IMG/VR virus record: IMGVR_UViG_3300035181_001203
Coordinates: 48,654 to 112,653 of that record
DNA: 64,000 nt
Strand: one strand, 5' to 3'
DNA from: a virus
In this document: one piece after another, positions 2,113 through 63,622 of the stretch
How the letters are laid out: each line of letters opens with the position of its first letter
Numbering within the stretch: the stretch's first letter is position 1
The notes under the pieces: model-generated
The model's input: the letters and a program-made list of their open reading frames with translations, nothing else
What the model was told of the DNA's origin: nothing
Database searches by the model: none
Translations under genes and position numbers: made by a program

Positions 2113-5024
2113 TAGGATAAAACCTCATATCCGGTTGTAACATTACATATCATTGGATACATAATACCATTAGAATCAAAACCATCTACGTTAGGATCAA
2201 ATCCACTATTAGGAACAAATACACGAGTATATAATATAGTTATTGAAAAATATTCTACATTTGAAACATTTGGAGTAGATATTTTAATTAAATTATAAGC
2301 ATATGGAGAGGGAGAAGCAGGATTCGTCGTAAAATCTTCACCACTTATATATAAAATATCTGAGCATGGTGGAACTAATGTTTTTGTATCTAAAATTGTT
2401 GTATATGTATTATCAGAATAAATATTAATTAATATAGAATAAAGTGAATTTGGTAAAATTATAGGTCCATTAATAGCACTTAAATTAGCTTTATAAAGAT
2501 TAGAAACCATTATATAACTACCATTTGTACTGAAAAAATATTCTTTATTTAATTCAAGAAATACATTCTCAGTAATAGCAAAAGCTGACTGATTGTTTGT
2601 TCCAGGGGTGTCATAGCCACATACAGCGTATGGATTAATCTTCATTCCATCTGATCTCATAACTATATACTCTTCTAAAACAGTAATATCAATATTAGTA
2701 TTGTAATAATAATGACATTCAATCTTATGCAATACGTTTGGATTTAATTGTACAGGTAGATCACTTAATTTAACATAATCAAAATAACCGCTTGTTATAG
2801 ACTGATATTCTCCATCATGTCCAAAATAATTAAATAACAAATTATTTGCAGTAGTATCCATTAATCGTACGTATGCAGTTTTAGGTATTTCGATACCATC
2901 AACAAAAGTTTTTGTTGTATATGTCCATAGTTGATCATTATCTCCAATTAGTGATGGACTAAGTGTTGTATCTGGCATTCTAATATATCCGGGCCATCTT
3001 AAAGGCCACGACGATAATGGTGCGCTGCTATAATTAGACTTAAATAAATATTTTAAACTATCTGAATAAGATAATTCATTATATATAAATGGAACTTTAG
3101 TAACTGGATTATCGAATCTTTTATATCCAGTTGTATATAAAGTATCTGTCGTATATAATGAATTTGTTCCAACAACTGAAGCTTCTTCAATATCTAAAGA
3201 AACAGTATATGGTGTATTGTTGATATCATAACCACTATCTAATATAAAATAAAATCCTGCATTAAAATTCAACGCAGCTTGTAACGAAGAGGATGCATCT
3301 GTTAAATTTTTAACATTATTATTAATATTTAAATTTGTCGCATTAATTATTGCTTGAATAATATATGTTCCATTAAAAAGAAAGTAATTACTATCTAAAG
3401 TTAAATCATCATTAATAACGCAATATGATAGATTGTTAAAAACTTGCTTCCCTTTCATGTAAATTATATAACCTTTAAAATTATTTAAGCTTGTTACTTT
3501 TAATTTAACTATTTTTTTATAAAAATTATCATGTTGATAATTAAACGGAGTAGATTTATTAACTTGTAAAGCTGAATCAAAAGTTGTTCCACCTAAAACG
3601 TTAGTATTTTTAATAAAATTCATTGTATATTTATGATAATAATTCTTATAAATATACCCTGAACCAAGATATTCAGTATTTATATTAAACACAAGTTGAT
3701 ATTTACCTTCTATAAACACATTCAATTTATCAAGATTTATAAATGTATTATGATAAATTCTTTCTGAAGCAACATAAAAGTTATGACTATTTATATAATT
3801 AGGAGAACCAATTGGTGCATCAACACTCAATAAAGTATAACTATCTATTCTAAAAATATATGTATTAAAACAATTTAAAATTAAATTTCCATTAAATCTT
3901 GAACTATATTTTGTGTTTCCACCATCTAAAATATTATTATGTAGCCTATAAACAACCGCAAGATAAGATTTTTCTCCACAATAAAAATTCTGGTCAACGC
4001 ATTGTATATAATTAATAGTTTCGAACAAATTTGGGCTTATTTGATTATAATAAACTTTCTTAATTGAGACTATTTCAACATAAATACAACCATTATTATC
4101 AATCATTCCATAATGCATTTCAATATTATGACTACTATTTATATAAAAACTAAGACTATCACTTATTGTATCATCCTGAATAACATTATTAACATAAATA
4201 TTTAATTTTAATGTATGTAAACTATTTATTGATAAATTAGAAATTAATGATGTTAAATCAATTTTACCTTCATAATTTGTAGAATAAACAGGAGCTACAG
4301 TTGTTGCTACACTATCTATAACAACTTCTATTTTAGTAATACTATTTTTATCTAACGTGTTAGAAAACAATCTAAGAGTTAAAATATTTAATAAATCTTT
4401 TTCTAACCAATATGATACTACGAATAAATCTGGTAGTGTTGAATCTGGGAAAGGTAATGTTACATTATCGGTATTCCTGTTTAATAAACTTACTGATGTT
4501 TTATTATTTCCTTCACTCACATCTGAAGATGATGAATTTATAGGTTGTAATTCTGAAATATCATTTGCTCCATAAAATTTTACAATGGTTGAACCATTAT
4601 CTGCTAATCGCTGATTAACTGGAACTAATTGTGGATTTAAATCTGTAGAAATAATACTTATATGACCACTATTAATATTTCCAATAACATTATAAACATA
4701 TTGATATCCATTCCATATTGTCGAACCACTTGGTAAATTAATGGCTATTGTCGCATAACATGAATTATTATTACATACAATATTATAGGCTATATCAATA
4801 TTATCTCCAACATATTGTTGGAATTTTGTAGCATAATCATTATATGATATGTTATTATTAAGATATTGAATATTATATGATGTTAAACCATTTATTACTG
4901 ATGTATATAAATCTTGATATTGATCAAATGGAGTTGAATCATCTAATGTTGTATAGAAATAGTTACCATTATTAAAATAGTTATTTGGTAATAAATACCC
5001 ATCATAAGCAATAAAAATACTCAT
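2112..5024 (-). CDS. Large Asn/Tyr/Ile-rich beta-type protein, probable virion/tail accessory protein
   Basis: 970 aa ORF translationally coupled to both neighbours; composition only, no catalytic motif. Confidence 0.5.
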   Translation of the reverse strand: MSIFIAYDGYLLPNNYFNNGNYFYTTLDDSTPFDQYQDLYTSVINGLTSYNIQYLNNNISYNDYATKFQQYVGDNIDIAYNIVCNNNSCYATIAINLPSGSTIWNGYQYVYNVIGNINSGHISIISTDLNPQLVPVNQRLADNGSTIVKFYGANDISELQPINSSSSDVSEGNNKTSVSLLNRNTDNVTLPFPDSTLPDLFVVSYWLEKDLLNILTLRLFSNTLDKNSITKIEVVIDSVATTVAPVYSTNYEGKIDLTSLISNLSINSLHTLKLNIYVNNVIQDDTISDSLSFYINSSHNIEMHYGMIDNNGCIYVEIVSIKKVYYNQISPNLFETINYIQCVDQNFYCGEKSYLAVVYRLHNNILDGGNTKYSSRFNGNLILNCFNTYIFRIDSYTLLSVDAPIGSPNYINSHNFYVASERIYHNTFINLDKLNVFIEGKYQLVFNINTEYLGSGYIYKNYYHKYTMNFIKNTNVLGGTTFDSALQVNKSTPFNYQHDNFYKKIVKLKVTSLNNFKGYIIYMKGKQVFNNLSYCVINDDLTLDSNYFLFNGTYIIQAIINATNLNINNNVKNLTDASSSLQAALNFNAGFYFILDSGYDINNTPYTVSLDIEEASVVGTNSLYTTDTLYTTGYKRFDNPVTKVPFIYNELSYSDSLKYLFKSNYSSAPLSSWPLRWPGYIRMPDTTLSPSLIGDNDQLWTYTTKTFVDGIEIPKTAYVRLMDTTANNLLFNYFGHDGEYQSITSGYFDYVKLSDLPVQLNPNVLHKIECHYYYNTNIDITVLEEYIVMRSDGMKINPYAVCGYDTPGTNNQSAFAITENVFLELNKEYFFSTNGSYIMVSNLYKANLSAINGPIILPNSLYSILINIYSDNTYTTILDTKTLVPPCSDILYISGEDFTTNPASPSPYAYNLIKISTPNVSNVEYFSITILYTRVFVPNSGFDPNVDGFDSNGIMYPMICNVTTGYEVLS

Positions 5025-5350
5025 TGTACAATAGTCCTAAAAAATGCACCTGTTATACCATTATTTAATACTAGTGTTGGTAAGACAATTGGCTTATAAG
5101 CTATAATTGGCTGTGTAATGTATATATTCGTTTCATATTGTGAAATCATGCCATTTGAATTATCTTTAACAGATAATAAAATATGTTTTACACCTAAAGA
5201 ATCAAATTTAACATAAATTTTTCTACCAGTAAGCGTAATTATATTAAGATGATCTAAATTTATTTGCCATGAATAACTATAATTTGCATTATGCTTAACT
5301 AAATCGTTAGCTATTAATAAAACTTTTGAAAATTGTGGAAAATATCTCAT
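5021..5350 (-). CDS. Small PKD/Ig-like protein
   Basis: YSYSW...VKFDSLGVKHILLSVKD resembles a PKD domain; ATGA overlaps. Confidence 0.45.
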   Translation of the reverse strand: MRYFPQFSKVLLIANDLVKHNANYSYSWQINLDHLNIITLTGRKIYVKFDSLGVKHILLSVKDNSNGMISQYETNIYITQPIIAYKPIVLPTLVLNNGITGAFFRTIVQ

Positions 5351-6372
5351 GAAATTTTAATTCCAGAAATAGGATTGGTGTCTAACTCACTGATATTAAT
5401 TCCAGCAGCTTTTCTATTTACAGAACTTGTATTGTCTATTATTTTAGCTTTTTGTCTTACTAAATTAGCGTTTCTTTCTATATCACCAGTTATATCTTCA
5501 TATAAATTACCATCAATCTGTCTTACAACATCACCTTTAATAATTTCTTTATATAATAATTGTCCACCCATTCCACCAATAGTTTTGTTGTAAATAGTGT
5601 TGTGTTGATCATCAACGATCACAGTTTCTATAATACCATTAGAAAATATATTATAAGTTATATAATTTCCACAAACTATTTGAATATCTCCAACTGGTTT
5701 TAAAATAATAGTTAAATTAGGATTTCTTTTTTTAGTTGTTGGGTCTATATCACCAACAAATACCGTTATTCCGGCTTGTGTAAAATCAATCTGATATTCA
5801 AAATTCTCAGACATAGCATCTTCATTATCGTTTGCGCCGTTAATAAAATTACGATCACTACCAGAGAAGCATAGTCTAGTAATTACTTCATCACCACTGT
5901 TAATAGAAAATACTCTAAAACCAGCCCCCATAGCATCGTAATTTTGACATACCGTGCGAATCAGACCCTCAAGACCCGAGTAAATCGTCTGACACAGGGG
6001 GCTAGACCCCATCATGCTTAATTTTCCGCGTAACAAGGATAAAAAAGCACCGTCTGGACCTGAAATCATACGGTCGCCGGGTAAATGTCTATTTAATGGC
6101 AAATTTCCACCAAAGCCTGATAAGAACTGCGTTAAGTTATTATCATCTCTAGATCTGCCGACATACCAACGAGAAATCTTTGATCCACCATCCTCGTCAG
6201 TAAAAATAACTGCTATATCACCTAATTCTGGATGGTGTAAGTCTCCAGACTGTTTTAAACTACATTCAGCATATGAAACATCTTCAGTGAAGAAATTACC
6301 ATCAATTGAGATAGTATCGCAACACAATCTGTTAACATCAACATAAATTATTCTAGCTTCATGATAACTCAT
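5347..6372 (-). CDS. Putative baseplate central spike (gp5/gpV-like)
   Basis: N-terminal PELGDIAVIF (OB-fold-like) and C-terminal 8-residue repeats IKGDVVRQ/IDGNLYED/ITGD typical of spike beta-helices. Confidence 0.45.
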   Translation of the reverse strand: MSYHEARIIYVDVNRLCCDTISIDGNFFTEDVSYAECSLKQSGDLHHPELGDIAVIFTDEDGGSKISRWYVGRSRDDNNLTQFLSGFGGNLPLNRHLPGDRMISGPDGAFLSLLRGKLSMMGSSPLCQTIYSGLEGLIRTVCQNYDAMGAGFRVFSINSGDEVITRLCFSGSDRNFINGANDNEDAMSENFEYQIDFTQAGITVFVGDIDPTTKKRNPNLTIILKPVGDIQIVCGNYITYNIFSNGIIETVIVDDQHNTIYNKTIGGMGGQLLYKEIIKGDVVRQIDGNLYEDITGDIERNANLVRQKAKIIDNTSSVNRKAAGINISELDTNPISGIKIS

Positions 6373-6752: not shown

Positions 6753-6900
6753 GACAGCATCTCGCGCGCTTTAAAAGCAACTACCACAAAAAGAAAAACC
6801 AGGGGTTGTTGCATATATGTTCGTATTAGCTGATATTTTATTATTCATGAGTATTAAAAAACCAATTAATGATTGTTTTAGATTTGTTAAAAGTGATAAA

Positions 6901-7011: not shown

Positions 7012-7346
7012 GAGCACAAGTCCAATGGATCTAAGATCTACACTGTTCATACCACCGTCCTACAATCATATTTGGGATGACCCTCACACGCGAAGGTGGA
7101 AAAAGGGAGGAATCCCAAAACTCGCCTCGCGCACGTAGCCGATTTTTGAAATACGATTGTAGGGCGGGGGTATGAAGGGTCGAAATACTGATTTTCATGG
7201 ACTTGTGCTCCCCCTGGAATCCATTATCAACATGAGTGTTGGACCCTTCAAACACGAAACCCCGACATTTGCCGGGGTTTCTACCAGATACTTGTGTTAC
7301 ACTAATCACTTGAGGTCGCTCCACTTTCGTAAAACTCTCAAACTTC
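7012..7346. other. GC-rich, extensively self-complementary non-coding element (structured RNA or origin element)
   Basis: GAGCACAAGTCCA(7012)/TGGACTTGTGCTC(7198); CCGTCCTACAATC/GATTGTAGGGCGG; TTTGGGAT/ATCCCAAA; GAAACCCCG/CGGGGTTTC. Confidence 0.6.
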
Positions 7347-7460: not shown

Positions 7461-9128
7461 ATGAATATTGATATTGAAATTGAAAATGGAGTTGAAGAAT
7501 ATTCACTTTTTAATTATTTTTACATAAGTCAACGCTATTTTGCTTCAGGGATCAATAGAATCACTGGAGAAACTAAAAAATTTATCACAACAAAAGGTTT
7601 TGATCAAATTTTAATGTCCTCTAAAAAGGGAATTGAATATAATTTTACGAAAAAACATTTCAATCCATATTTATGTGATAAAGAGAAGCTGATTTTTAGG
7701 GAATCACAGCTTATTGAAAATCAAAAAATTATAAAAGATATAGGTCCATCTAATTTTAGTGGTAATTATGAAGTAGTTAAAAAAAATCAGCCATATAAAG
7801 ATAATTTTTATTTTGAGACAGTTCCTTTTAAGGTAGAAGGTTTTGATCTTTTTAGATATCAAAACGATGATTTGTATTTTACACAGTATCAATCAGATGC
7901 TAGAAATAAATTGCCTCAACTTGTGAATGTTTTTGATGCAAATTTGTATGAAAAAATTAATATAGTACATGCAGTTAATGATAATGGTGATGATTATTTT
8001 GATCTTAATTGTCTTATTCGTATTTGCGATGCAGAACTTGGATATCCAGATAAGAATTCATTCTATTCTATTATTAGAGCGGCAGGATTTGAAGGGGTTT
8101 TTAAACCCCATAAAATAGGTCCATTAGAATTTGTAAACTTAAAAGATATTTTACAGTTTAAAAATGATTGTGGCAACGCTTATATTCAAAAAAACATAAA
8201 TAAGAAGCTTTCTAAACGCAAATTTGCATTTAGATACTTATATGAATACTTTAAAATTATAGAATCTTTATGTTCTAAACGTAGAAAACAATCAATAGGC
8301 TCACAAACTGGGCCTAAAGAATATAAAAAGGAAGAATTTTTACCTATTTTTTACGATAATACAATTATGGATTTTAAAATTGTATATTTTAAAGATATTT
8401 TTACTATTGAACGTAAACATGAGCTTAAGAAGATTGTTCCAGGGGATCCAATCTTCTATATTGATGGTCATTATGACTTTAATACTGGAGCAGTATCCTT
8501 TTATAATTTCAAATCAACAGGTGAAATAGTTAAAAAAATAAAAGAGAAGTTAGGAACAACCACTTCAATTAGATTTGCTAAAGTTATATCTGAATGGCTT
8601 CCTAATACATTTGGATATATTCCCCTTATAGTTAAACTAAGTATGTCTCAAAAAGCAAATCCTTCTCCATTATCCGATAATCTCACTCTCTATACAATTC
8701 CGATTAGAGAAGAAGGTTCAAATGAGGTTTTTGGTGCTGAGACGTATGTAAATTTATTTGAGTATTTTGCTAACTTTGGCATACACATTCCACAAATACG
8801 TAATATGCTTAATGCAAATAGATTTAGTTCTAAGATCTTTACACTTCTCGATACAACATTTCCAGTTTATAACGTATGTAAGGATACTCGACGTAAAATA
8901 CATGAATTTGACGAGATAAATGATCAGGATAATGAGCTTATAAATCTAATGTTTCCAGTAAGTTACGGAGTCTTAGTAATTTCACACATTCTTGAAAAAG
9001 CTGGTATATCCAAAAACTCTTATTGGTATTCCAACCTTAATAGGCTCTGCCAATCCTTCCCCCCTGGAGATGCAATTTCAACCGTCTATACCCCTCCTGA
9101 ACTTCAGGAATATTTAAATGAGGAATAA
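7461..9128 (+). CDS. Hypothetical 555 aa protein next to the candidate origin
   Basis: Long ORF, AGGAGG RBS; no family recognised. Confidence 0.7.
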   Translation: MNIDIEIENGVEEYSLFNYFYISQRYFASGINRITGETKKFITTKGFDQILMSSKKGIEYNFTKKHFNPYLCDKEKLIFRESQLIENQKIIKDIGPSNFSGNYEVVKKNQPYKDNFYFETVPFKVEGFDLFRYQNDDLYFTQYQSDARNKLPQLVNVFDANLYEKINIVHAVNDNGDDYFDLNCLIRICDAELGYPDKNSFYSIIRAAGFEGVFKPHKIGPLEFVNLKDILQFKNDCGNAYIQKNINKKLSKRKFAFRYLYEYFKIIESLCSKRRKQSIGSQTGPKEYKKEEFLPIFYDNTIMDFKIVYFKDIFTIERKHELKKIVPGDPIFYIDGHYDFNTGAVSFYNFKSTGEIVKKIKEKLGTTTSIRFAKVISEWLPNTFGYIPLIVKLSMSQKANPSPLSDNLTLYTIPIREEGSNEVFGAETYVNLFEYFANFGIHIPQIRNMLNANRFSSKIFTLLDTTFPVYNVCKDTRRKIHEFDEINDQDNELINLMFPVSYGVLVISHILEKAGISKNSYWYSNLNRLCQSFPPGDAISTVYTPPELQEYLNEE

Positions 9129-9365: not shown

Positions 9366-9659
9366 TTGAGTAATCCAATAATTAAAACCAATCATCAGCC
9401 TAGACCAGTAATATTTTTTAGTGAAATTCCAGAAGCTATTAGAGTTAATGAATTTAATTATTATACTGAAAAAGATTATGTAGGATGTTTTTTTAAATAT
9501 AAAGGTTGTTATTATGATGTATTACAATTTGTACGTCTTAATAAAAATTCTTCTTTTCCAGGGTGGGATGGTATTATGAATCAAAGTTTCTTTTCTGGTT
9601 TATTACTTAAATGGTGCAATAATCCTGATTATGTTGTTATTGGAAGGTATTGCTTATGA
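9366..9659 (+). CDS. Hypothetical phage protein
   Basis: CAGGAG RBS, TTG start. Confidence 0.55.
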   Translation: MSNPIIKTNHQPRPVIFFSEIPEAIRVNEFNYYTEKDYVGCFFKYKGCYYDVLQFVRLNKNSSFPGWDGIMNQSFFSGLLLKWCNNPDYVVIGRYCL

Positions 9660-13625: not shown

Positions 13626-14078
13626 TTGAAGATGATCAAAACCTTAAATGTAATTATTGCAAGAAAGGAATTTGAAGTGGATGAATCAAACATTGAACAT
13701 ATCGTTGAGACAGTCAAAGATCGTCAACCAGATGTAGCTGAAGAAATTGTTTCTGCATTAACATTTCCAGGGGTTGACTTTATTTTTCAAATTTCAAGAG
13801 AAGAGACTTGGGAAGGAGAATGGATTTTCCGTGTTTATAATTTTACGCTGACAGCTTTTGATGAAATTAGTGAACTTAAATATATGCATTTAAGAGAATT
13901 AATGATGAATGCATTTACTTCTTATAATGATGGTGATATGTTATCATTAAAAGTTAAAATTGACGAAATGATGGATTACTGGAAACTTCAAGAGTTTAAG
14001 ATCAAGACAGCCTATAGGTCACAGAAAGATGGTGTTAATCTAAAACCACAGAAAGATGGTGTTAATATAAAACTATAA
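13626..14078 (+). CDS. Hypothetical protein (true start probably GTG ~13677)
   Basis: AAAGGA RBS before GTG. Confidence 0.5.
   Translation: MKMIKTLNVIIARKEFEVDESNIEHIVETVKDRQPDVAEEIVSALTFPGVDFIFQISREETWEGEWIFRVYNFTLTAFDEISELKYMHLRELMMNAFTSYNDGDMLSLKVKIDEMMDYWKLQEFKIKTAYRSQKDGVNLKPQKDGVNIKL
14020..14073 (+). repeat. 27-bp tandem duplication
   Basis: CACAGAAAGATGGTGTTAAT(C/A)TAAAAC x2, giving QKDGVNLKP/QKDGVNIKL. Confidence 0.85.
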
Positions 14079-14400: not shown

Positions 14401-14843
14401 TGTTTGAATTTATTAAAATGTATGATGATGTAGAATTACCACAATACAAAACAATGAAATCTAGCGGTCTTGATATTAAGGCTTACATTAAAAATGATTA
14501 TAATAAAATAATTATTCCTTCAATGAGTCATGCTTTAATTTCTACTGGATTAAAATTAAAATTTAAAACAGATGTTGGGACACTAAATGTTGAAGCACAA
14601 ATTAGAGGAAGATCTGGATTAGCGTTAAATCATCAAGTTATAGTCTTAAACTCCCCTGGAACTATTGACGAAGATTATGAGGGCGAGATTAAGATTATTT
14701 TATTCAATTTATCAGAAAGTCATTATACCGTTCGTCACGGTGATAGAATTGCACAAATAGTTTTTTGTAATATTTTACGTCATCATAAATATATCCAAAA
14801 TTCTATTCGTGGTGAAGGTGGTTTTGGATCAACTGGGAAATAA
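14400..14843 (+). CDS. dut: Trimeric dUTPase
   Basis: SGLDI, RGRSGLAL, GTIDEDYEGEI, GDRIAQ, RGEGGFGSTG. Confidence 0.95.
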   Translation: MFEFIKMYDDVELPQYKTMKSSGLDIKAYIKNDYNKIIIPSMSHALISTGLKLKFKTDVGTLNVEAQIRGRSGLALNHQVIVLNSPGTIDEDYEGEIKIILFNLSESHYTVRHGDRIAQIVFCNILRHHKYIQNSIRGEGGFGSTGK

Positions 14844-14882: not shown

Positions 14883-15161
14883 ATGGACTTCTCACAAGCT
14901 TTAATCCTTTGTAAATCTGGCTCTAAAATTACTCGTACTGGTTGGAATGGTAAAAATATGTATGTAGTTTACCAGAAAGGCTATCCAGAAGGTATTAATA
15001 TTAATAAAAATACTGCTGAAGCTACCGGCATTCCGGAAGGAACGCTTTGCAAGTTTACCCCATATCTAATGATGAAAACCGCAGATACAGATCCCACCTT
15101 CTGCCCCTGGTTAGCTTCTCAAACTGATATTTTGGCTGAAGATTGGATTGTTTTACCATAA
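14883..15161 (+). CDS. DUF2829-family protein (Tad2-like nucleotide-signal sponge)
   Basis: MDFSQAL...G.KITRTGWNGKNMYV...PWLASQTDILAEDW. Confidence 0.8.
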   Translation: MDFSQALILCKSGSKITRTGWNGKNMYVVYQKGYPEGININKNTAEATGIPEGTLCKFTPYLMMKTADTDPTFCPWLASQTDILAEDWIVLP

Positions 15162-17163: not shown

Positions 17164-17166
17164 AAT

Positions 17167-19356: not shown

Positions 19357-19578
19357 ATGCAACTAGCAGAACGGGAATCAACCCCTGGATGCCCAGAAAT
19401 TATTGAGTTAAGTGGAAATCATAAATTAGTACTAAGAAAAAAAAGAATATATAATTCTATTGAAGATATATATGAATTTCATTGTGGTTTAAATATAGTT
19501 TCATTTGAAATCCCAAAAACAGCAATATCTAGTTATTATCACATATGTCCGTGGTGTCATCTTTTTATAAAAAAATAG
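19357..19578 (+). CDS. Hypothetical protein
   Basis: AAGGA RBS. Confidence 0.4.
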   Translation: MQLAERESTPGCPEIIELSGNHKLVLRKKRIYNSIEDIYEFHCGLNIVSFEIPKTAISSYYHICPWCHLFIKK

Positions 19579-20487: not shown

Positions 20488-20685
20488 ATGTGGATGGAGA
20501 TGGAATACCAGGGGAAGACCTATAAAACGAAGGTAAATGAGAAAATTACCCAAGACAAGATGGTGAAAGAACTCTACGATAACTTCTCGAATATGGATAT
20601 TCTTCAAATGGAGCTTGAAGACGGTTCAATCATCGTTATTGGTAAGGGCGTCCTGCAATCGGCGGTTATCAGAATCTATGCCTAA
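20488..20685 (+). CDS. Hypothetical protein
   Basis: AGGAG RBS. Confidence 0.55.
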   Translation: MWMEMEYQGKTYKTKVNEKITQDKMVKELYDNFSNMDILQMELEDGSIIVIGKGVLQSAVIRIYA

Positions 20686-22766: not shown

Positions 22767-23309
22767 ATGGAAACTCTAAGCTTTGAAGAGTTAAAACCAG
22801 GGGATGTTCTTTTATTTGAGGATTCTCCATACTTTAGCTATTCATTATATAAGTTTTTACTAAGATCTAAATATCAAAGTTGTGCTTTAGTTGATACATT
22901 TAAATATGGTTATTACTGGATAATTGGAATGGGTGGTTTAAATTCTTGTGTTGATAATTCTTATACCTTAAAAGATATTGAGCAAAAATATAAGAAAATT
23001 CATGTAGCTAGAAATAAAAATATTAATTATAAAAGCCAAAAAACTTCTGTATTGCTTGATAAAAAATTTTCTTTAAGTATTTATTTTAATTTATTAATTA
23101 ATAAATTATTAATTAAATATGTTAATAAAAATCATAAATTCAAAAAATATTTTAATTCAAGTGATGATTGGACGGCTCCCTCGTTAGTTGCATATATCTT
23201 ATCTTTTCATTCAAATGCTAGGATAACAGAATATTATGAATTTATTGATCCAGATTATTTTTTAAATAATAAAGATTGGGAAATCTATCAATATAAGGGG
23301 CAATCTTGA
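22767..23309 (+). CDS. Permuted papain-like (YiiX/YebB-like) protein, catalytic residues apparently absent
   Basis: LKPGDVLLF...YQSCALV...WTAPSLVAYI...IDPDYF. Confidence 0.4.
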   Translation: METLSFEELKPGDVLLFEDSPYFSYSLYKFLLRSKYQSCALVDTFKYGYYWIIGMGGLNSCVDNSYTLKDIEQKYKKIHVARNKNINYKSQKTSVLLDKKFSLSIYFNLLINKLLIKYVNKNHKFKKYFNSSDDWTAPSLVAYILSFHSNARITEYYEFIDPDYFLNNKDWEIYQYKGQS

Positions 23310-23970: not shown

Positions 23971-24414
23971 ATGCCATGCTATATTAACAACAAAATAATT
24001 TTTGTAGAACTGCGGAGTTTAATTGTGACAAACCAAATTAATTTAGATCTATACAATGAAATAAGAGAAAAATTAGCTATTGCTGTAGAAACTCAACTTT
24101 TATTATTTCTTGATGATGATCAATTAGATTTTTCAGTCAGGTCTGTATATAATGACGTAGAAAGATTAAGGGATAAATCCCCTGGATGTGATCTTAATTT
24201 TTATACTTCGATTGAAAATGGAACTTTATTCATAGCAGTTTATAGTACAATATTTGATATATCATGTTTAATAGAAGAAGAAAGGATTATAAAAAGTACA
24301 TTAGCTATTTATAATTTTATGGTAAATCAACTAGCAAGAAAGTCTAATTTAAACACTCCTATAAAAACAAAAACCTATATGCAAGATAATAAGATTATTA
24401 CAGAATTCCTGTAA
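23971..24414 (+). CDS. Hypothetical protein
   Basis: 147 aa ORF followed by a terminator. Confidence 0.45.
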   Translation: MPCYINNKIIFVELRSLIVTNQINLDLYNEIREKLAIAVETQLLLFLDDDQLDFSVRSVYNDVERLRDKSPGCDLNFYTSIENGTLFIAVYSTIFDISCLIEEERIIKSTLAIYNFMVNQLARKSNLNTPIKTKTYMQDNKIITEFL

Positions 24415-46592: not shown

Positions 46593-48077
46593 ATGAGTTT
46601 GATCAAATTAGCTAAAAAAGAAAAAGAAAAAGAAAAAGAAAAGCTTAAAGAACAAAAATTCAAACCCCAAAAACATCAAATAAGTGCTGTTAAAAAATTT
46701 GAAAAAAGTAAATCAGAAATATTTTTTCACGGTTTAGGAAGTGGCAAAACATTAACTAGTATTATGGCAGGTGAGAGAACCCCTGGAAATAAATTAGTGT
46801 TAACTCCAGCTTCTCTTGCTCATAATTTTAGAAAAGAATTACATAAATTTAATATATCAGATCAAAATTATAAACTTGTATCTTATGAAAAGTTTAGACG
46901 TAATCCAGATAAATTTATAGATAAATATAAACCATCTATGATTATTGCTGATGAATTCCATAGAGCAAATAATATGGATTCTCTTACTGGTGATTCATTA
47001 AGAAAAGCTAGATTGAAAACCAAAAAGTTTATAGGTTTGACTGGATCTTTAGCTCAAAATAGACCATCAGAAATTGGTGAGTTATTACATACTGCAACCG
47101 GAAAACCAGTATTAGGAAATAATCAAGAAGAGTTTGATAAAAAATTTATTAAAAATCGTATAATTAAACCTAGTTTATTTGGTCGTTTCATAGGTATAAA
47201 ACCAGGGGCTATTGAAGAACCTAAGAATTTAGATAAATTTAAAACTATTGCTGACCAGTATATTAGTACGTTTGCTGGTGATGAAGAATATAAAAAACAT
47301 TTACCTATTGTAGAAAGAGATGTTGTTAGAATAAAAATGGACAAGCCTCAACAAAAAATTTACGACTACACTTTTGGTAAGGCTCCAGCGTGGGTTAAAT
47401 TTAAAATAAGACATAATATGCCGACATCTAAGCGTGAGTCCGTTAATATTAACTCTTTTTTAATGGGTAGTAGGCAGGCGTCAACAGCTATTCAGCCATT
47501 CGGGGTACAATCTAGTACCCCAAAACTCAATGCAGTTTTGCATGACTTAGAACATGGAATAAAAACTGATAAGAATTTTAAAGGTGTAGTTTACTCAAAC
47601 TTCCTTGAAGGTGGATTACTGCCTCTTGGAGAAAAATTAAAAAAACATAATATTCCATATGGATCATTCACTGGACAACAAACGCATTCTGAACGAAATT
47701 CAATGATTCATGATTATAATAAAGGAAAATTAAAAGTATTATTGTTATCACAGGCTGGCGGTGAAGGTCTTGATCTTAAAGGTACAAAATATTTAGGTAT
47801 AATGGATCCTTCATGGAATCCTGAAAAAACTGAGCAAGTAGTAGGAAGAATAGCAAGATTTAAATCACATGAAATGCTGCCAGAAAATGAACGTAAAGTA
47901 ATAGTTAAAGAATATTTATCTGAACCAAAATTAGGATTACTAGGTAAAATCAAAAAAGTATTTAAACCAGAAACACATGCAATTGGAACTGATGAATATA
48001 TTCGTAATAGATCTCTTGAGAAAAAAAATCTAAATGATAAATTTACAAACATTCTGAAAGGAATGTCGAATGTCTGA
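46593..48077 (+). CDS. SNF2-like SF2 helicase/ATPase with N-terminal MSLIKLA tag
   Basis: HGLGSGKT, DEFH, LTGS, AGGEGLDL, WNP..EQVVGRIAR. Confidence 0.9.
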   Translation: MSLIKLAKKEKEKEKEKLKEQKFKPQKHQISAVKKFEKSKSEIFFHGLGSGKTLTSIMAGERTPGNKLVLTPASLAHNFRKELHKFNISDQNYKLVSYEKFRRNPDKFIDKYKPSMIIADEFHRANNMDSLTGDSLRKARLKTKKFIGLTGSLAQNRPSEIGELLHTATGKPVLGNNQEEFDKKFIKNRIIKPSLFGRFIGIKPGAIEEPKNLDKFKTIADQYISTFAGDEEYKKHLPIVERDVVRIKMDKPQQKIYDYTFGKAPAWVKFKIRHNMPTSKRESVNINSFLMGSRQASTAIQPFGVQSSTPKLNAVLHDLEHGIKTDKNFKGVVYSNFLEGGLLPLGEKLKKHNIPYGSFTGQQTHSERNSMIHDYNKGKLKVLLLSQAGGEGLDLKGTKYLGIMDPSWNPEKTEQVVGRIARFKSHEMLPENERKVIVKEYLSEPKLGLLGKIKKVFKPETHAIGTDEYIRNRSLEKKNLNDKFTNILKGMSNV

Positions 48078-49296
48078 TTCACAATTTTTATTTAATTATC
48101 TTCCATCATTTTATCAGAACTTTATGAATGATAAAGATGGGAATAATTTAATTGCTCCAATCTTTGATATTTATTTAAATAGTATTAGCGATGCAATATT
48201 CCAGGGGCAGCAAATTGGGGCTGTTCCTTTTATAGAATTATGTGATCCTATTATTGTTGAATTATTTTCTACTATTGATGTAACAATAAATAATAAATAT
48301 TTAGATGGTTATATTATAGATAATGAAATAATTAAACTAGAAGGATTATATCTCGATGGTAATTTTACAAAACCAGTATTAGGAACATATTCAATTAAAC
48401 ATAATATTTCAAATAATATTCGTTATATAGTTTTTGATACGCAATTACCGTTAACTCAATCAAATATTTTTATTCAAAAAGTTTATAGAGATAAACAGAT
48501 TCTACAAAATATTTGGGGAAATTTAATTAATTACAAAAAACAGATTCCTGATTATAATACTTTATCAGATGGATTTATAGTAGATTTCACATCTATTCAA
48601 TCTGACTTAATTTCATATAAAAATCAGATTATAGCTTTATATTATGGTCTTATTAATGGACCTTCTATTAATTCAATGCGTAATGGATTAGGAATATTTC
48701 TTGGTTTAAAATATGCAACATTTGATGGTATTGTGACAGATTTGAGTAGTGGTGTTACTATAGAATCTTTAGATAGATTGACAACATATAACGCTCCATG
48801 TATTCCAAGAACAGATTTAATAATTGGATCATTAGTTAAAAAATATGATTTACTTGAACAGCCTACATATACTTTTTATGATATTTATAATAATCCAGCA
48901 GCATTTACACAAATTCTTTTAGAAGGACAAGCTGATAAATATTTTACCCTATTAAATATAGATACGGCTAATCAAGAACAATATGCTCATTTAACTTTTG
49001 ATTCGACTATTTCATTCGATGATGTTAATATTTATTGGGATATGGGCAATGGGACTGGACTTGTTAAAGATTTGACAGGCACTACATTGACACCAAAATA
49101 TGACCCACTAACGCCAGAAACAAGATTTGATTCATGGGTTTCACCTTTATTTAATAATGAAAAAATATATGAAATGTTTAGAAATTTATTTATAGTTAGA
49201 GTTGATTCAGCTACAAATGCTAATGCTGATTTTACATATTATCTTAATAGAATAAAACCAATTTGGACAAAATATATTACTTCAGTGTATGTTTAG
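48070..49296 (+). CDS. Putative baseplate wedge-type protein
   Basis: FLFNYLPSFY N-terminus, GPSINSM, YLNRIKP; context. Confidence 0.45.
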   Translation: MSDSQFLFNYLPSFYQNFMNDKDGNNLIAPIFDIYLNSISDAIFQGQQIGAVPFIELCDPIIVELFSTIDVTINNKYLDGYIIDNEIIKLEGLYLDGNFTKPVLGTYSIKHNISNNIRYIVFDTQLPLTQSNIFIQKVYRDKQILQNIWGNLINYKKQIPDYNTLSDGFIVDFTSIQSDLISYKNQIIALYYGLINGPSINSMRNGLGIFLGLKYATFDGIVTDLSSGVTIESLDRLTTYNAPCIPRTDLIIGSLVKKYDLLEQPTYTFYDIYNNPAAFTQILLEGQADKYFTLLNIDTANQEQYAHLTFDSTISFDDVNIYWDMGNGTGLVKDLTGTTLTPKYDPLTPETRFDSWVSPLFNNEKIYEMFRNLFIVRVDSATNANADFTYYLNRIKPIWTKYITSVYV

Positions 49297-49304
49297 GATA
49301 ATGT

Positions 49305-49526: not shown

Positions 49527-49527
49527 T

Positions 49528-49941: not shown

Positions 49942-50901
49942 ATGTTAAAATTTTTAGAGAATAATTTAAAATTTGACGCATCCGGTCTTACAATTGGACC
50001 TGGTTCAACTAGTAATCTATCTACTCACTTAACAATTGATCAAACAAGCACTATACCTACTACATTTACTATAGCAGTAAGTGGTTCTCCTTTTACTCCA
50101 GTTTTAACAAAATTAACTGATCAAGATTGTTTATTAACAATTACTTTTGATCAACCATTAACTAATTTACAATTCAATACAAATCATGTTTTAGTTATTA
50201 CTGCAAATACTGGAGATACTTTTAATCTTAATGTTGAAATTAATTATGCAAATGATTTTTCTTTATCTAATTGGACGAATTCAGCAGATGCTGTTTCTGT
50301 AAATGACATAGATTTCAAAGGCCCTTTAACTTCAATAAGCATAAACAATAAATTCAGATCAATTTTAACTAATGCAATTAATGCCTTAAATCAAGCTAGA
50401 TTAAATATGCAGTATTACTTCTTTAAAGAAAAATATCTTTCTGATATTATTGAATTTGCAATCGAAGCTGGATCTACTCTAGAAAATTCAAATGCAGTTA
50501 TAACATATAATTCTGATGGAACAATTAATTATATCATTAAAACTTACACTACTTCCAGGGGTAGAAACCAACAAGTAAAAATAACATACACTTATGGAAA
50601 TTTTAATATTATTAGAATACAAAAACGTGGGAATGTAGAAATACAGCTAGAAACAACTGTAGCAAGTTTAATTACTGGATTTAAAATTGATGCATTAAAT
50701 AATTCTGGAGCATTAATTTATTCATTAGGATCAGTAGCAATTAATAGAAGCGCATCTCCAACATTATATTCAATTCCGTATTTACATGATTATTTAGATA
50801 CTGGTAATCCTACTATTGATGCTATTAATCCAGATAATATAATGGCAGATTATAAATATTATAGAACTAATACTATTACTGGATGGACGGTAACTGTATG
50901 A
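49942..50901 (+). CDS. Putative structural (fibre-associated) protein
   Basis: Thr/Asn-rich beta protein; GAGG RBS. Confidence 0.5.
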   Translation: MLKFLENNLKFDASGLTIGPGSTSNLSTHLTIDQTSTIPTTFTIAVSGSPFTPVLTKLTDQDCLLTITFDQPLTNLQFNTNHVLVITANTGDTFNLNVEINYANDFSLSNWTNSADAVSVNDIDFKGPLTSISINNKFRSILTNAINALNQARLNMQYYFFKEKYLSDIIEFAIEAGSTLENSNAVITYNSDGTINYIIKTYTTSRGRNQQVKITYTYGNFNIIRIQKRGNVEIQLETTVASLITGFKIDALNNSGALIYSLGSVAINRSASPTLYSIPYLHDYLDTGNPTIDAINPDNIMADYKYYRTNTITGWTVTV

Positions 50902-54126: not shown

Positions 54127-55053
54127 ATGTTCACAGACCATATTCATGATCAAATTGGAAAATATAGAGTTGGAGTTATTGTTGACTCTATGCCTGATTT
54201 TGTAAAAGAAGCAGAAGAAAAAATTGTTACAGAAGATTTAACAAAACTCCCTGATGGTGCTTTTGCTTATTCTGATGGCGTAAATAGATTTTTCCCTATT
54301 CATACTCCTGAACATACTTGGCTTAGTCATGCATATTTTGAAAAATTTGCCAGTCAAATTGATGAATCTATTAGATCCGAGATTGAAGATCGAATTGATG
54401 ATGCATATTTAGCCTTTGAACTTCCACTGAATAATTTAGTAAAATTTGCTTCTCAAGAAGATCATATTGATGCTTTACATAGTCTTTCTATTGAAATGAA
54501 TAACTTTATTGATAATTATAAAAGATTACCAGTTCGTCAAAGGCGCAATAAAGCTAAAGAAATTTTAGCAAGAGCATTTGCTTTAGGCAAAGCAGAACAT
54601 ATGCATGATCTTATTAAACAATATGCTGGACATAATTTAAATCCAAATTATTCTCAAGCTTTTGCTTCGAGGATGAAATACTTCAAAGAGAATGCTCCTG
54701 AAAGAAAAATTTTAATGCAAATGCAAGATGAAGTTCCAAATCATCTGGCAGAAAGAGTAGCAGAAGCATTACAAATTTTTGATGAAAAAACAGGATTACA
54801 TAAATATTACGATAATGAAATTATGGATCCTTACTATGAACTCCTATCCCCTGGAGAAATTTCTGAATCTCCAATATATTTTGATGGTGAAACAATCCTT
54901 CCATCAAAATTAAAAAATTTTGATCACACTTCTTTATCAGATATTCTTAATGATCATTTATTAGGTGGCTTGAAACTTGATCCAATCAATACTTTAAAAA
55001 ACATGAATCCAAACGTTAGAATTATTGTCATTAAAAGAATTAATCATGCATAA
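54127..55053 (+). CDS. Putative head assembly/core protein
   Basis: LPDGAFA...RFFPIHT; two KFASQ sites; upstream of portal. Confidence 0.4.
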   Translation: MFTDHIHDQIGKYRVGVIVDSMPDFVKEAEEKIVTEDLTKLPDGAFAYSDGVNRFFPIHTPEHTWLSHAYFEKFASQIDESIRSEIEDRIDDAYLAFELPLNNLVKFASQEDHIDALHSLSIEMNNFIDNYKRLPVRQRRNKAKEILARAFALGKAEHMHDLIKQYAGHNLNPNYSQAFASRMKYFKENAPERKILMQMQDEVPNHLAERVAEALQIFDEKTGLHKYYDNEIMDPYYELLSPGEISESPIYFDGETILPSKLKNFDHTSLSDILNDHLLGGLKLDPINTLKNMNPNVRIIVIKRINHA

Positions 55054-57338: not shown

Positions 57339-58255
57339 GTTTAATTAAATTAGCAGGATTACAATCTTTAATTATGCCAACCGTAGGAACTACTGCTGCT
57401 ATGAGTGGAAGTCCTTTTTCATGGTTAATGAAAAAGAGTCCTAAACAAAAGATTTTTGGATTTATTCCAAAGCCTAGTTTAAGAAGAAATGTTCAGGAAA
57501 TAAATATATCAACAATAGCAAATGCTATTAATAATATTAGAGATGGAAAAGTGCAAGATTCTACTAGATTCCTATCTGGATTAGCCGATTCTACAATAGG
57601 TCATGCTGGCAAATTAGGAATTGGAATTGCTGAGAAATTAAATAAAACTCCAGGGGTTTCTAAATTATATAAATATTTAACAAATAGAGTTATATCAAGA
57701 GATGGAAAAATACAAATAGATCAATTAGAAAAACTATTAAAAACTGGTAAAAAAATTAATGATATTAGTTCTAAAATTAGCAATAATCCATTAACATTGT
57801 ATGGAGCAGGTATTGGTTCTATAGTGGGTGGTTCTAAAACTCCAACTGATGATAATTCAAGATTAAAAAATACTTTAAAAGGATTTATGGTTGGTGGAAG
57901 TGTTGGTTTTGGAGCTAAGAAAATAGCAAATTCAGTAAAAAATAAAACAAATCCATTGGCATCTATACATAAACATTATTTTGCTGATGATTATTGGAAG
58001 GAAAGAATACAAGGAGCAAACAAAAGTGTTATTGGTCCTGTATTAGCAAATGCTTTTACATCTTCTCCAGAAAGTAGAGCAAATCGAATTAAGAGATTTA
58101 ATGCGTGGCGTGATTTTAACCAGGATGTTTTTAATAAAAATAAATTTGTAAATTTATTCAATACCACAAAAGATAGTTTTAAAACAAAAAATAAAAACAA
58201 GAGAACACTTATTGGCTCATTAGGTAATAAACTATTTGGTGAAGATGAAAAATGA
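57335..58255 (+). CDS. MSLIKLA-tagged basic protein with Gly-rich hydrophobic helices
   Basis: MSLIKLAGL...GAGIGSIVGG...GFMVGGSVGFGA. Confidence 0.7.
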   Translation: MSLIKLAGLQSLIMPTVGTTAAMSGSPFSWLMKKSPKQKIFGFIPKPSLRRNVQEINISTIANAINNIRDGKVQDSTRFLSGLADSTIGHAGKLGIGIAEKLNKTPGVSKLYKYLTNRVISRDGKIQIDQLEKLLKTGKKINDISSKISNNPLTLYGAGIGSIVGGSKTPTDDNSRLKNTLKGFMVGGSVGFGAKKIANSVKNKTNPLASIHKHYFADDYWKERIQGANKSVIGPVLANAFTSSPESRANRIKRFNAWRDFNQDVFNKNKFVNLFNTTKDSFKTKNKNKRTLIGSLGNKLFGEDEK

Positions 58256-60002: not shown

Positions 60003-60634
60003 ATCAAAAAGATTTTACATTAAGTAGAAATTTTAATACTGGACTTTATGGAGTTAGAGCAGTTGTGCTTTTCTTAAGGGAAATGTTCACAGCAAATCCA
60101 GATTTAGGTTTTAATATTTATACTGATGATCTAGCAAAAGCAGATGCATTTTTAAGTTTACATATCACCACTAAACATGACTGGGAAACTAAATACAGAG
60201 GGAAGCGTCCTATTATCTTTGTTTCCAGGGGCAATTTAATAACGGGAGTAAATAATACTCAGGGTATTGGAAGAGTTCTTTCTATAACAAATAATGGACA
60301 AGTTACCTCATATTCTGATTTGATTTCGTTCCCAATTGTGGTAGAATGTTTATCAGAGAGCGATATTGAATCGGAAACGTTATCATCCATAGTCCTAACA
60401 TTATTGACTGGTGATACAAGAGCATTAAGAAGTTTAGGATTACAGATACAAGGAAATCCTATACAAACGCCTACACAGTTATTCGAGAAAGTAAATAATT
60501 CTTTTATTTCTTCAGTAATTATTCAAGTTCAAGTCCAAAGACAAATGAGAGCAATAAGAACACCAAAAAATTTATTAGAAAGTATAGAATTTAAAATTAA
60601 TGATGGTTTAGAAGTTAACATAAAAGAGGATTAA
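59999..60634 (+). CDS. Putative tail completion/terminator protein
   Basis: KRPIIFVSRG, ECLSESDIESE; immediately before sheath. Confidence 0.5.
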   Translation: MNQKDFTLSRNFNTGLYGVRAVVLFLREMFTANPDLGFNIYTDDLAKADAFLSLHITTKHDWETKYRGKRPIIFVSRGNLITGVNNTQGIGRVLSITNNGQVTSYSDLISFPIVVECLSESDIESETLSSIVLTLLTGDTRALRSLGLQIQGNPIQTPTQLFEKVNNSFISSVIIQVQVQRQMRAIRTPKNLLESIEFKINDGLEVNIKED

Positions 60635-60636
60635 TT

Positions 60637-61602: not shown

Positions 61603-61613
61603 TCGGAGATAAA

Positions 61614-62585
61614 ATGAGTATTTTAATTACAGTACCCGGTGAAACCTTTTTAACAAAAGGTGTAAGAATTGGAGATACTGTTAAAATATTAACAGTAAAT
61701 GGCTCAGATGTAGATTCTACTCATTATCTTTTAAAGAGTGGATCTAACCAATTAGACTATGACGCTCTTTTAGTTTCTGAAGTTGTAAGTGAAACATCTT
61801 TCAATATGGAAGCTTATAAAAATGGCGTTACTTTAGACATTGATGCCACGATGTTGAATTTAGCATCGAAACAATCCTTTACTTTTGATATTATTCATAA
61901 TCTTTCAAAAGATGAACAAGTTGATCAAATTTGTGCAATAGCACAAGGATATGCAAATAAGCGTGTAGTATTAGTTTGGCCTCCAAAAGCAGATTATATT
62001 ATTAATAGTAAAAAAGTTACAGTAGATGGATCTGCTTTAGCTGCTGCTTTAGCTGCTGCTAAATCAATTTATCCTGCTCAACAGTCAATGACTAATATGC
62101 CTTTTGCTGGCCCTTATCAACTTTACTATTCAAATAATTATTTTACACCAACACAACTAAATAGATTGAGTGATGCTGGTGTATTAGTTTTAGTTCAAGA
62201 TGCTGTTGGTGCTGATATTTATGCCAGACACCAAAAAACTACAAGCAATGTATCAATTCAAGAACAAGAAATGAGTATTACAAATGCTATTGATAAAATA
62301 TCAATTGATATAGCAGCAATAGGAAAACCCTTCATAGGTAAATTTAATATTACTCAAGATTTACTTACGCAATTACAAGATGTATTTAATACTTATTTAT
62401 TTAATGCTCAAAGTCATAAATCTCCATATTGTGGAAGTTTAATTTTAAGTTATACTGCTCCTGTACTTAGAGCAAATTTAGATGGTCAAAATACAGATTT
62501 ACCCCCTGGAAGACTTCAAGTATCCTTAACAGTTGAAATTGGTTATCCAGCTAATTATATTGATATTCTTGTTTACATTCAATAA
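61614..62585 (+). CDS. Tail sheath protein, C-terminal part
   Basis: RVVLVWP, QLNRLSDAGV, RHQKTT, EMSIT, FIGKFNIT, YPANYIDI. Confidence 0.75.
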   Translation: MSILITVPGETFLTKGVRIGDTVKILTVNGSDVDSTHYLLKSGSNQLDYDALLVSEVVSETSFNMEAYKNGVTLDIDATMLNLASKQSFTFDIIHNLSKDEQVDQICAIAQGYANKRVVLVWPPKADYIINSKKVTVDGSALAAALAAAKSIYPAQQSMTNMPFAGPYQLYYSNNYFTPTQLNRLSDAGVLVLVQDAVGADIYARHQKTTSNVSIQEQEMSITNAIDKISIDIAAIGKPFIGKFNITQDLLTQLQDVFNTYLFNAQSHKSPYCGSLILSYTAPVLRANLDGQNTDLPPGRLQVSLTVEIGYPANYIDILVYIQ

Positions 62586-62598
62586 AAGGTGATTAATT

Positions 62599-63327: not shown

Positions 63328-63337
63328 AGGTGAGCAG

Positions 63338-63622
63338 ATGAGTTTAATTAAAATTGCTGCAAGAGGCGATGTTTTATTTAGAAATGGAATTTTAGCTGCA
63401 ACAAAAGAAGCTGGAACCCCAGGGGTTAATGCAGCTTCTAGAATACTTAGATATTTACCAAAGTTCAAAGATTCAAATAATTTAAAAGTAATTAAAGACG
63501 TTGACAATATTGGCAATGCTGTTGATAAGTATGTAAAAAATGCAAAAATATCTAACACATCATCAATGAGTAATTTTAGAAAAGCTGTAGCAAAAAATCC
63601 GAAACTTGGTAAATTACTTTAG
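63338..63622 (+). CDS. MSLIKIA-tagged small basic protein (start re-called)
   Basis: GAGGTG RBS before ATG 63338; MSLIKIAARG. Confidence 0.7.
   Translation: MSLIKIAARGDVLFRNGILAATKEAGTPGVNAASRILRYLPKFKDSNNLKVIKDVDNIGNAVDKYVKNAKISNTSSMSNFRKAVAKNPKLGKLL

Follow-up and report, generated by a model that had tools for sequence, protein, structure and literature searches.

Which enzymes read a genome can, in rare cases, be glimpsed from dispersed words kept by selection, among them Chi, FtsK-orienting polar sequences (KOPS), primase sites and uptake sequences. As a kind of feature, such words are already known from phage genomes. Here we describe such a word, TCCAGGGK, in a 64,000-nucleotide (nt) stretch of viral DNA (the window; bases 48654-112653 of the 112,653-bp virus contig IMGVR_UViG_3300035181_001203, 31.8% GC, hereafter G000) and in its relatives. 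The lineage consists of uncultured large phages that encode their own multisubunit RNA polymerase. A paper on RNA polymerase-encoding Caudovirales, which this phage resembles, makes no mention of hosts or DNA words (PMC7481178). A literature search for the bare word returned primers only, and we found no description of TCCAGGGK or of a comparable feature in this phage group. What is new here is the balanced, per-strand-even arrangement, the rapid turnover, and the association with a predicted primase-Rep fusion.

DnaG-type primases, including T7 gp4 and E. coli DnaG, read short asymmetric words on a single-stranded template via a zinc-binding domain (PMC2910064). T7 gp4 uses the sites 5'-(G/T)(G/T)GTC-3', and the gp4-type primase AtTwinkle uses 5'-(G/C)GGA-3' with a two-nucleotide cryptic element (PMC5737085; PMC2910064). 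As is proposed here for TCCAGGGK, these are asymmetric words on a single-stranded template, read by a DnaG/TOPRIM-type primase fused to a helicase; further likenesses are a GC-rich primer, a degenerate far-end letter, cryptic 3' letters, presence on both strands, and, in T7, enrichment of the sites. The known sites are 4 to 5 nt long and about 1.4-fold enriched, whereas TCCAGGGK is 8 nt long, 13-fold enriched and evenly spaced. The helicase partner differs as well, being of the DnaB/gp4 type in T7 and, by prediction, of the Rep/Cch (DUF927) type here.

Chi occurs once per 4.6 kb in E. coli and once per 1.86 kb in phage LLS (PMC12315714). Chi-rich lambdoid phages carry it in one orientation (20 of 23 copies in LLS, 32 of 32 in MD8), clustered near one end, and belong to a class without its own recombination module (PMC12315714; PMC3784561). 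TCCAGGGK resembles their Chi in being an 8-nt, asymmetric, G-rich word that is selected, genic and found once per 2 to 3 kb. The Chi-rich phages have a near-total orientation bias, end clustering, a word copied from the host and no Rec modules, whereas here the word is balanced and even and the lineage has its own Rec module.

Origin iterons (SaPI Rep, SCCmec Cch, phage P4 alpha) are short asymmetric words bound by a replication initiator, as may be the case here; inverted pairs occur, and the initiator fold matches the C-terminal half of the candidate reader described below. Iterons are clustered at one or two loci, whereas TCCAGGGK is genome-wide. DNA uptake sequences of Pasteurellaceae and Neisseriaceae are short words found about once per 1 to 2 kb in both orientations, in peptides that tolerate them and with turnover, and they serve uptake by competent bacteria. 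Their genome statistics are the same as those of TCCAGGGK, but nothing would explain their presence in a virulent-type phage that has its own RNA polymerase, and a host of this kind is not known. TGTGGGCA and AGTACT are also dispersed phage 6- to 8-mers kept by selection; they are different words in unrelated phages, and TGTGGGCA, for which a priming-site reading fell, is a caution rather than support.

A GC-rich heptamer exceeds codon-aware expectation

The G000 contig is a fragment, 72% complete according to CheckV. A first-pass annotation of the window had listed 28 copies of CCAGGGG, and we confirmed all of them by position and strand. Dinucleotide shuffles of the window yielded 1.12 +/- 1.12 copies, with a maximum of 4. 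The base 5' of the heptamer is T in 21 copies, A in 6 and C in 1, in keeping with the earlier description of the word as usually WCCAGGGG, and nothing else is conserved in a 47-nt frame around the copies. Over the whole contig there are 45 copies, 25 on the plus and 20 on the minus strand, with a mean spacing of 2.5 kb.

Genes were called crudely, as the longest non-overlapping open reading frames (ORFs) under the standard code (156 ORFs, 92% coding). Permuting synonymous codons within genes gave an expectation of 5.7 +/- 2.0 copies of CCAGGGG (maximum 12), and permuting them from a genome-wide codon pool gave 3.7 +/- 1.5 (maximum 9), compared with 45 observed. Among the 512 distinct 7-mers with at least six G or C, the runner-up unrelated word has 11 copies against 3.6 expected. 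In the contig, CCAGGGG ranks first among 7-mers and TCCAGGGG first among 8-mers (34 copies versus 0.9-1.6 expected), whether the expectation is taken from dinucleotides or from a third-order Markov model. Because codon-preserving shuffles do not reproduce the count and there is no comparable GC-rich 7-mer, the enrichment is at the DNA level and unique to the CCAGGGG word. Both of these checks had been suggested with the first-pass annotation, and neither overturned it. The word thus shares with Chi a strong excess of a short asymmetric word over codon-aware expectation.

Of the 45 copies, one is intergenic and the others fall within ORFs (23 sense, 21 antisense); they occur in every frame, as had been reported for the window. 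The copies in the window, in window coordinates, are as follows, including one variant, at 9557..9564, that was missing from the earlier list.

2601..2608, plus strand, TCCAGGGG, antisense within an ORF, encoding T-P-G
6798..6805, plus strand, ACCAGGGG, the sole intergenic copy
7211..7218, minus strand, TCCAGGGG
8438..8445, plus strand, TCCAGGGG, sense, encoding V-P-G-D
9061..9068, minus strand, TCCAGGGG
9557..9564, plus strand, TCCAGGGT variant
13766..13773, plus strand, TCCAGGGG
14653..14660, minus strand, TCCAGGGG
15104..15111, minus strand, ACCAGGGG
19382..19389, minus strand, TCCAGGGG
20507..20514, plus strand, ACCAGGGG
22796..22803, plus strand, ACCAGGGG
24179..24186, minus strand, TCCAGGGG
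28334..28341, minus strand, TCCAGGGG
31295..31302, minus strand, TCCAGGGG
33850..33857, plus strand, TCCAGGGG
38338..38345, minus strand, ACCAGGGG
41356..41363, plus strand, TCCAGGGG, left half of a convergent pair whose members are separated by 60 bp and lie just 5' of DnaE
41416..41423, minus strand, TCCAGGGG, right half of the convergent pair with 41356..41363
43459..43466, plus strand, TCCAGGGG, within DnaE, where the peptide is F-S-R-G-D
46780..46787, minus strand, TCCAGGGG, SNF2 helicase gene; in the relative G001 the same aligned codons hold TCCAGGGT on the opposite strand
47201..47208, plus strand, ACCAGGGG, SNF2 helicase gene
48200..48207, plus strand, TCCAGGGG, encoding I-F-Q-G-Q
50554..50561, plus strand, TCCAGGGG
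54848..54855, minus strand, TCCAGGGG
57649..57656, plus strand, TCCAGGGG
60224..60231, plus strand, TCCAGGGG, common to G001
62503..62510, minus strand, TCCAGGGG, common to G001
63418..63425, plus strand, CCCAGGGG

The word is shared by the lineage and its positions turn over

A megablast of 20 kb against a phage collection gave no match, and there was no close DNA relative among cultured phages. Relatives were found through the DnaE polymerase, which lacks a PHP domain and defines a clade of metagenomic proteins with 43-87% identity. Compared with G000, which has 39 copies of TCCAGGGK, the relatives are as follows.

G001, 33 kb, fragment, DnaE identity 67%, 15 copies of TCCAGGGK
G002, 157,395 bp, complete, DnaE identity 63%, 26 copies
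G003, 85 kb, fragment, DnaE identity 56%, 22 copies
G004, outgroup, 168.6 kb, complete, DnaE identity 42%, 4 copies, equal to background

TCCAGGGK is the top 8-mer in G000 and G003, among the top in G001, and weaker in G002, which holds a 34-kb stretch without any copy. Five further contigs of the clade, reached via the primase-helicase alignment described below, carry 21 copies in 65 kb, compared with 0 for a reversed-word control. The word is therefore present in 9 of 9 related phage records tested, while the outgroup G004 is without enrichment.

We mapped each G000 site onto the orthologous codons of the relatives. Sites held in common were few (4 of 11 with G001, 3 of 27 with G002 and 0 of 14 with G003), and each relative is independently enriched. 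Pro-Gly is encoded by 28 of the 44 genic copies in G000, as CCA-GGG-G in sense and as NCC-CCT-GGA in antisense. Codon choice follows the word: GGG makes up 7.5% of Gly codons overall versus 38% in Pro-Gly-[GAVDE], and the word spells 36% of P-G-[GAVDE] and 50% of [STPA]-P-G tripeptides, compared with 0-6% in the outgroup. In several places in G000 the protein itself is altered to spell the word. DnaE reads FSRGD at 43459..43466 where relatives have FSNGD, FASGD or FARAE, and a second protein reads IFQGQ at 48200..48207 where relatives have LYQSQ or IYETQ, the G000 residues fitting the word.

The few positions in common, together with amino-acid changes that spell the word, indicate that density and not position is selected. 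Therefore, selection, or some directional process, acts on the abundance of the word rather than on particular positions. The first-pass proposal of a selected dispersed DNA signal is strongly supported by the codon shuffles, the lineage-wide enrichment with turnover, and the amino-acid changes.

One of the few cases of positional conservation is a divergent pair of words 252 bp apart, found in two clade contigs (L286 at 2878/3130 and L287 at 6376/6628) and probably orthologous. The DnaE-type polymerase gene itself lies at window 41884-45012 (+); the PHP domain (PF02811) that its clade is without is carried by all listed cellular homologues. A separate DnaQ-like exonuclease is encoded in G002 at 49032-49607.

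The unit is an asymmetric 8-mer

To define the unit (motif enrichment pooled over the four word-bearing genomes G000 to G003), we measured each one-letter variant against synonymous shuffles. TCCAGGGG was observed 70 times versus 5.2 expected (13.6-fold) and TCCAGGGT 32 times versus 5.0 (6.5-fold). ACCAGGGG and CCCAGGGG were mildly in excess, at 2.5- to 5-fold. The remaining one-letter substitutions, for which counts are small, were at or near expectation, with none above about 3.4-fold, and the synonymous neighbour TCCAGGaG was depleted (4 versus 14.9). A logo of the 102 sites had zero information flanking the eight positions. This sharp substitution profile and the empty flanks define the unit as the asymmetric 8-mer TCCAGGGK, with one degenerate end letter. 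The preference at that letter varies by genome: G000 and G003 favour G, and G001 and G002 take either G or T.

Two other units were considered and rejected. A repeat element is at odds with the finding that only eight positions carry information. The palindromic Dcm core CCWGG is not itself in excess (111 versus 95.6 expected in G000), and outside the 8-mer it falls below expectation.

Other words in these genomes are of a different nature. The top word of G002, GCCATNGCC, stems from a single tandem hexamer array within a gene and is not a dispersed signal; about 35 tandem copies of GCCATN at G002 112817-113026 account for the top-ranked 9-mers of that genome and are unrelated to TCCAGGGK. GCATTTG, CTAATGC and CTAAAG (47, 43 and 139 copies) are dispersed genome-wide, for example at window 341-347, at about 2.5 times the count expected under a third-order model. 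A promoter element or an effect at the level of codons may account for them, and related words head the list for G004.

Copies on the same strand avoid each other

Orientation is balanced along the contig (25:20), with no polarity along G000. An apparent polarity in G002 was dropped, as it depends on arbitrary assembly ends and is absent in G000. Orientation is likewise not tied to transcription (42 sense and 57 antisense, pooled), and on this ground we rejected stoperator or repressor sites, as in Cluster A mycobacteriophages, and transcription-linked operators.

Spacing is regular when each strand is taken separately. In G000 the coefficient of variation (CV) of the spacing is 0.55 and 0.52 on the two strands (p = 0.001 and 0.002), compared with 0.77 for both strands combined. 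The minus strand of G003 has a CV of 0.32 and G001 follows the same trend; in G002, spacing regularity was not found. Neighbours less than 1 kb apart are on opposite strands in 26 cases and on the same strand in 5 (label permutation P = 1e-4). Several spacing tests were run, and the strong results are this same- versus opposite-strand comparison and the G000 per-strand CVs only. Density is about one copy per 4.5-5.6 kb on each strand. With copies on either strand, such intervals could accommodate Okazaki fragments in G000 and on one strand of G003, where they are more even than random, but not in G002.

Opposite-strand copies in the four genomes include pairs 21, 26, 53, 56 and 60 bp apart. 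Convergent pairs within 1 kb number 17 versus 10.3 expected (P = 0.014, uncorrected for multiple tests), and within 300 bp there are 8 versus 3.1; this excess is absent in G001 and G003 taken alone. We regard the over-representation of convergent pairs across genomes as suggestive only.

The repulsion between same-strand copies suggests that the word is read strand-specifically or directionally, such that a second copy nearby on the same strand would add little. Strand-specific reading in turn disfavours a methylation mark and an orientation-blind DNA binder. TCCAGGGK is a very clean case of a dispersed word: an 8-mer with one degenerate letter and a 13-fold excess, gained and lost fast while its density and per-strand spacing are kept.

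A candidate reader: a DnaG-type primase fused to a Rep/Cch-type helicase

A search for the reader by presence and absence, comparing word-positive genomes with G004, failed because G004 also holds the whole replication and recombination module. The candidate that we favour is an ORF of 1,112 residues in G002 (59271-62609, minus strand; L276:272-3610:-), of which 20 homologues with 43-88% identity align well. The alignment consensus contains the DnaG motif FPLYNLDGALCGLRFRQL, a TOPRIM box (IVEGEMNLVAY) in which two glutamates are invariant, and a DHD motif, followed downstream by Walker A (GQSGSYKTT) and Walker B (DDLK) boxes. The N-terminal segment is zinc-ribbon-like, with the Cys and His ligands lost. 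Pfam recognized DUF927 alone, in 19 of the 20 members, leaving the primase part unrecognized, and a profile search of the primase alignment against PDB sequences found no match. Thus, the primase is revealed only by the consensus motifs and the fold.

We obtained an AlphaFold2 model with a mean predicted local distance difference test score (pLDDT) of 73.7, and mostly 70-90 over the N-terminal 470 residues. By Foldseek, the N-terminal half matched the zinc-binding and RNA polymerase domains of Aquifex primase (2au3, E 4e-8), the DnaG cores of S. aureus, B. subtilis, E. coli, P. aeruginosa and M. tuberculosis (target template modelling [TM] score 0.50-0.67), T4 gp61, the T7 gp4 primase fragment, and the DnaG zinc-binding domain 1d0q (TM 0.72). 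The C-terminal half matched the initiator helicases SCCmec Cch and SaPIbov1 Rep. By motifs and modelled fold, then, the protein encoded by the lineage joins a DnaG-type primase to a Rep/Cch-type helicase.

An orthologue that is 43% identical is present in G003 (match from about 73315), and clade homologues with 55-69% identity are found on the five further contigs, all of which bear the word. The G004 protein is very divergent, at 24% identity. Compared with the complete G002, the G000 contig is without about 46 kb (G002 31.5-78 kb) containing ribonucleotide reductase, ligase, clamp, nuclease, helicase, primase, terminase and capsid genes; G000 is assembled across the point where the G002 record starts and ends. 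In the relatives this segment encodes a RecD2-like superfamily 1 (SF1) helicase, a PD-(D/E)XK (PDDEXK_1/DUF2800) nuclease and an SbcC-like ATPase, all three of which are in G002 and G003, as well as an SF2 helicase, a clamp, the DnaQ-like exonuclease and a ligase.

Other candidates yielded little. PHROGs and Pfam, applied to some 50 proteins encoded in the window and in the left arm, recognized almost nothing relevant, and phmmer and profile searches of ORFs of 555, 408 and 308 residues against PDB sequences found no match. The 308-residue ORF, which is lineage-restricted and lies beside DnaE (window 45597-46523), was rejected as a binder; it is modelled as a beta-sandwich with no significant fold match.

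Priming or loading sites as the favoured reading

TCCAGGGK is kept by selection at about one copy per 4.5-5.6 kb per strand and is probably a recognition word that is read strand-specifically. Of the explanations considered, we rank first, tentatively, that the copies are preferred priming or loading sites for the lineage's own primase-helicase, a reader that the first-pass annotation had not considered. The complementary strand of the word is 5'-MCCCTGGA-3' (forms CCCCTGGA and ACCCTGGA), which holds CTG followed by a run of C. CTG is the classical DnaG start triplet, and the C-run would template a G-rich, stable primer, pppAGGG(G/U). The degenerate K would then be the last position of the primer, much as T7 (G/T)GGTC sites give pppACC(C/A). 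In a genome of 32% GC, a GC-rich site would need to be created by selection, evenly per strand, which matches the pattern seen. As a control, we measured the known T7 primase pentamers in the T7 genome, which are 1.3- to 1.6-fold over synonymous shuffles (z about 4); this excess gives selection for primase sites in a phage genome a precedent in direction. We infer that the primase-helicase would read the word, which strand would serve as the template, and that the event would be priming rather than helicase loading.

Several observations weigh against this reading. To our knowledge, primase sites are 3 to 5 nt long and none requires 8 nt, and the 13-fold enrichment is ten times that in T7 (about 1.4-fold). 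The primase-helicase gene is not on the 72%-complete G000 contig, where its presence is predicted from the relatives. In G004 a homologous primase-helicase occurs without any enriched word; presence of the gene is therefore insufficient, and a change in specificity must be assumed. The complete G002 has its 34-kb word-free stretch and no spacing regularity, indicating that the word is not essential there for lagging-strand priming. The CTG argument is a reading of the sequence only, and even per-strand spacing suits a Chi-like signal equally well. Finally, a similar reading of another phage's 8-mer, TGTGGGCA, as evenly spaced priming sites did not hold.

A bolder form of the proposal, which we consider doubtful, is that the lineage evolved an 8-nt code for its own DnaG-Rep primase-helicase and rewrote its genes, including their amino acids, to place a start or loading site about every 5 kb per strand. 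This would be a self-written replication punctuation, undescribed for any replicon. If the primase-helicase does read the word, its specificity would be long enough to shape the coding sequence of a whole genome.

Alternative readings

A Chi-like role is the main alternative, though we think it unlikely. Here the word on single-stranded DNA would be read by a translocating helicase-nuclease, which would switch from degradation to recombination or protection. The reader would be RecBCD/AddAB of the host or, on the phage side, the RecD2-like helicase together with the PD-(D/E)XK nuclease, and copies in both orientations would cover breaks on either side. The word itself suits such a role, as it is 8 nt long, asymmetric and 3'-G-rich, occurs once per 2.5 kb, and is genic in any frame with positions that turn over. 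Same-strand repulsion with independent opposite-strand sites would also suit a directional reader, and both the complete G002 and G003 encode the RecD2-like SF1 helicase, the PDDEXK_1/DUF2800 nuclease and the SbcC-like ATPase. Set against these are the extreme orientation bias and end clustering of known Chi-rich phages, compared with 25:20 and no polarity here, and their characteristic lack of a Rec module, which is rich in this lineage. No regulation by Chi is known for RecD2-type helicases with Cas4-like nucleases, and the same helicase-nuclease module is present in G004, which is without the word. Thus, the Chi-like mark proposed in the first-pass annotation, as a word for a phage or host helicase-nuclease, would be atypical in its missing orientation bias and terminal clustering and in the presence of the phage's own recombination genes. 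If a helicase-nuclease does read the word, a phage of virulent type would have a Chi-like system whose orientation is balanced.

A Chi word is also over-represented in the chromosome of the host. Upstream of the window, at contig 14960-18375, are six tRNA genes (Ser-TGA, Arg-TCT, Leu-TAA, Lys-TTT, Met with anticodon CAT, and Gln-TTG). Except for tRNA-Met, the codons that they read end in A or U, hinting at a host of higher GC content than the phage, in which words could be GC-rich. Nothing phage-like was seen among sampled bacteria: the word was not enriched in five arbitrary bacterial genomes, in 121 sampled Flavobacteriales (as a 10-mer) or in 400 kb of the genome G044, none of them a known host of the phage. 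A mild 10-mer excess in a few Flavobacteriales is an effect of GC content, and G044 has 12 copies of TCCAGGGG versus 19.8 expected. A profile scan of genome contigs with the DnaE alignment found only cellular DnaE, at no more than 41% identity, and gave no clue to the host. Whether read by a primase-helicase or a helicase-nuclease, the word is a ready marker by which metagenomes can be searched for the lineage, and it may also help to find the host.

It is improbable that the copies are dispersed duplex sites, bound either by the Rep/Cch-like C-terminal helicase, as mini-origins often in inverted pairs, or by a phage protein that organizes or compacts the genome. SaPI Rep binds short iterons at its origin, and SaPI Rep and SCCmec Cch are the structural matches to the C-terminal half of the primase-helicase. 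The mild excess of convergent pairs within 1 kb, one of them just upstream of DnaE (window 41356/41416), is in the same direction, but this signal is weak, lacks a correction for multiple testing and is not seen when G001 or G003 is taken by itself. Known iterons cluster at one origin rather than recurring every 2.5 kb. An orientation-blind binder, such as the DNA-organizing protein suggested in the first-pass annotation, predicts regular spacing of all sites jointly, whereas the regularity is per strand. No candidate binder emerged, the 308-residue ORF adjoining DnaE being a beta-sandwich without a fold match.

Still less probable is a target of covalent chemistry, meaning site-specific methylation or modification, or nicks like those of phages T5 and tf. 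The word does contain the Dcm/EcoRII core CCWGG, and among the proteins of the lineage are an HNH endonuclease and a ligase that depends on ATP. The methylation site that had been proposed is disfavoured by the per-strand spacing, by the lack of CCWGG enrichment (111 versus 95.6 in G000), and by six-frame hidden Markov model (HMM) scans, which detected no C5 (PF00145), N6/N4 or D12 methyltransferase in G000-G004 and were positive on control genomes; a host enzyme could exist. Modification explains neither the 13-fold excess nor the strand-wise spacing. If both members of opposite-strand pairs 21-60 bp apart were nicked, double-strand breaks would be expected in such AT-rich DNA, and the HNH gene adjoins terminase, which fits its usual role in packaging.

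A neutral by-product of biased repair or mutation, of the very-short-patch (VSP) type and turning near-matches into the word, is the least credible reading and highly improbable. In its favour, CCWGG-related words in E. coli may be raised by VSP repair, and TCCAGGaG is depleted (4 versus 14.9), but selection would predict that depletion just as well. Known repair biases fall far short of a 13-fold excess that comes with amino-acid replacements, same-strand repulsion is not predicted, and the G000-G004 scans found no methyltransferase partner. Part of the probability is assigned to none of the readings considered.

Other genes of the lineage

Among the early and middle genes of the window are a CYTH-domain protein (12192-12782, +), a deoxynucleoside monophosphate kinase (PF21448; 23306-23884, +) and a DHH phosphoesterase (34403-35350, +). 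G002 encodes a class II (B12-dependent) ribonucleotide reductase at 32502-35008 (+), interrupted by an intein. It also carries a TnpB gene (OrfB_IS605 / Cas12f-like TNB) at 47630-48709 (-), with a homologue in G004. In the window, a 55-residue, remnant-like match to TnpB lies at 45322-45543 (-), between DnaE and the next ORF.

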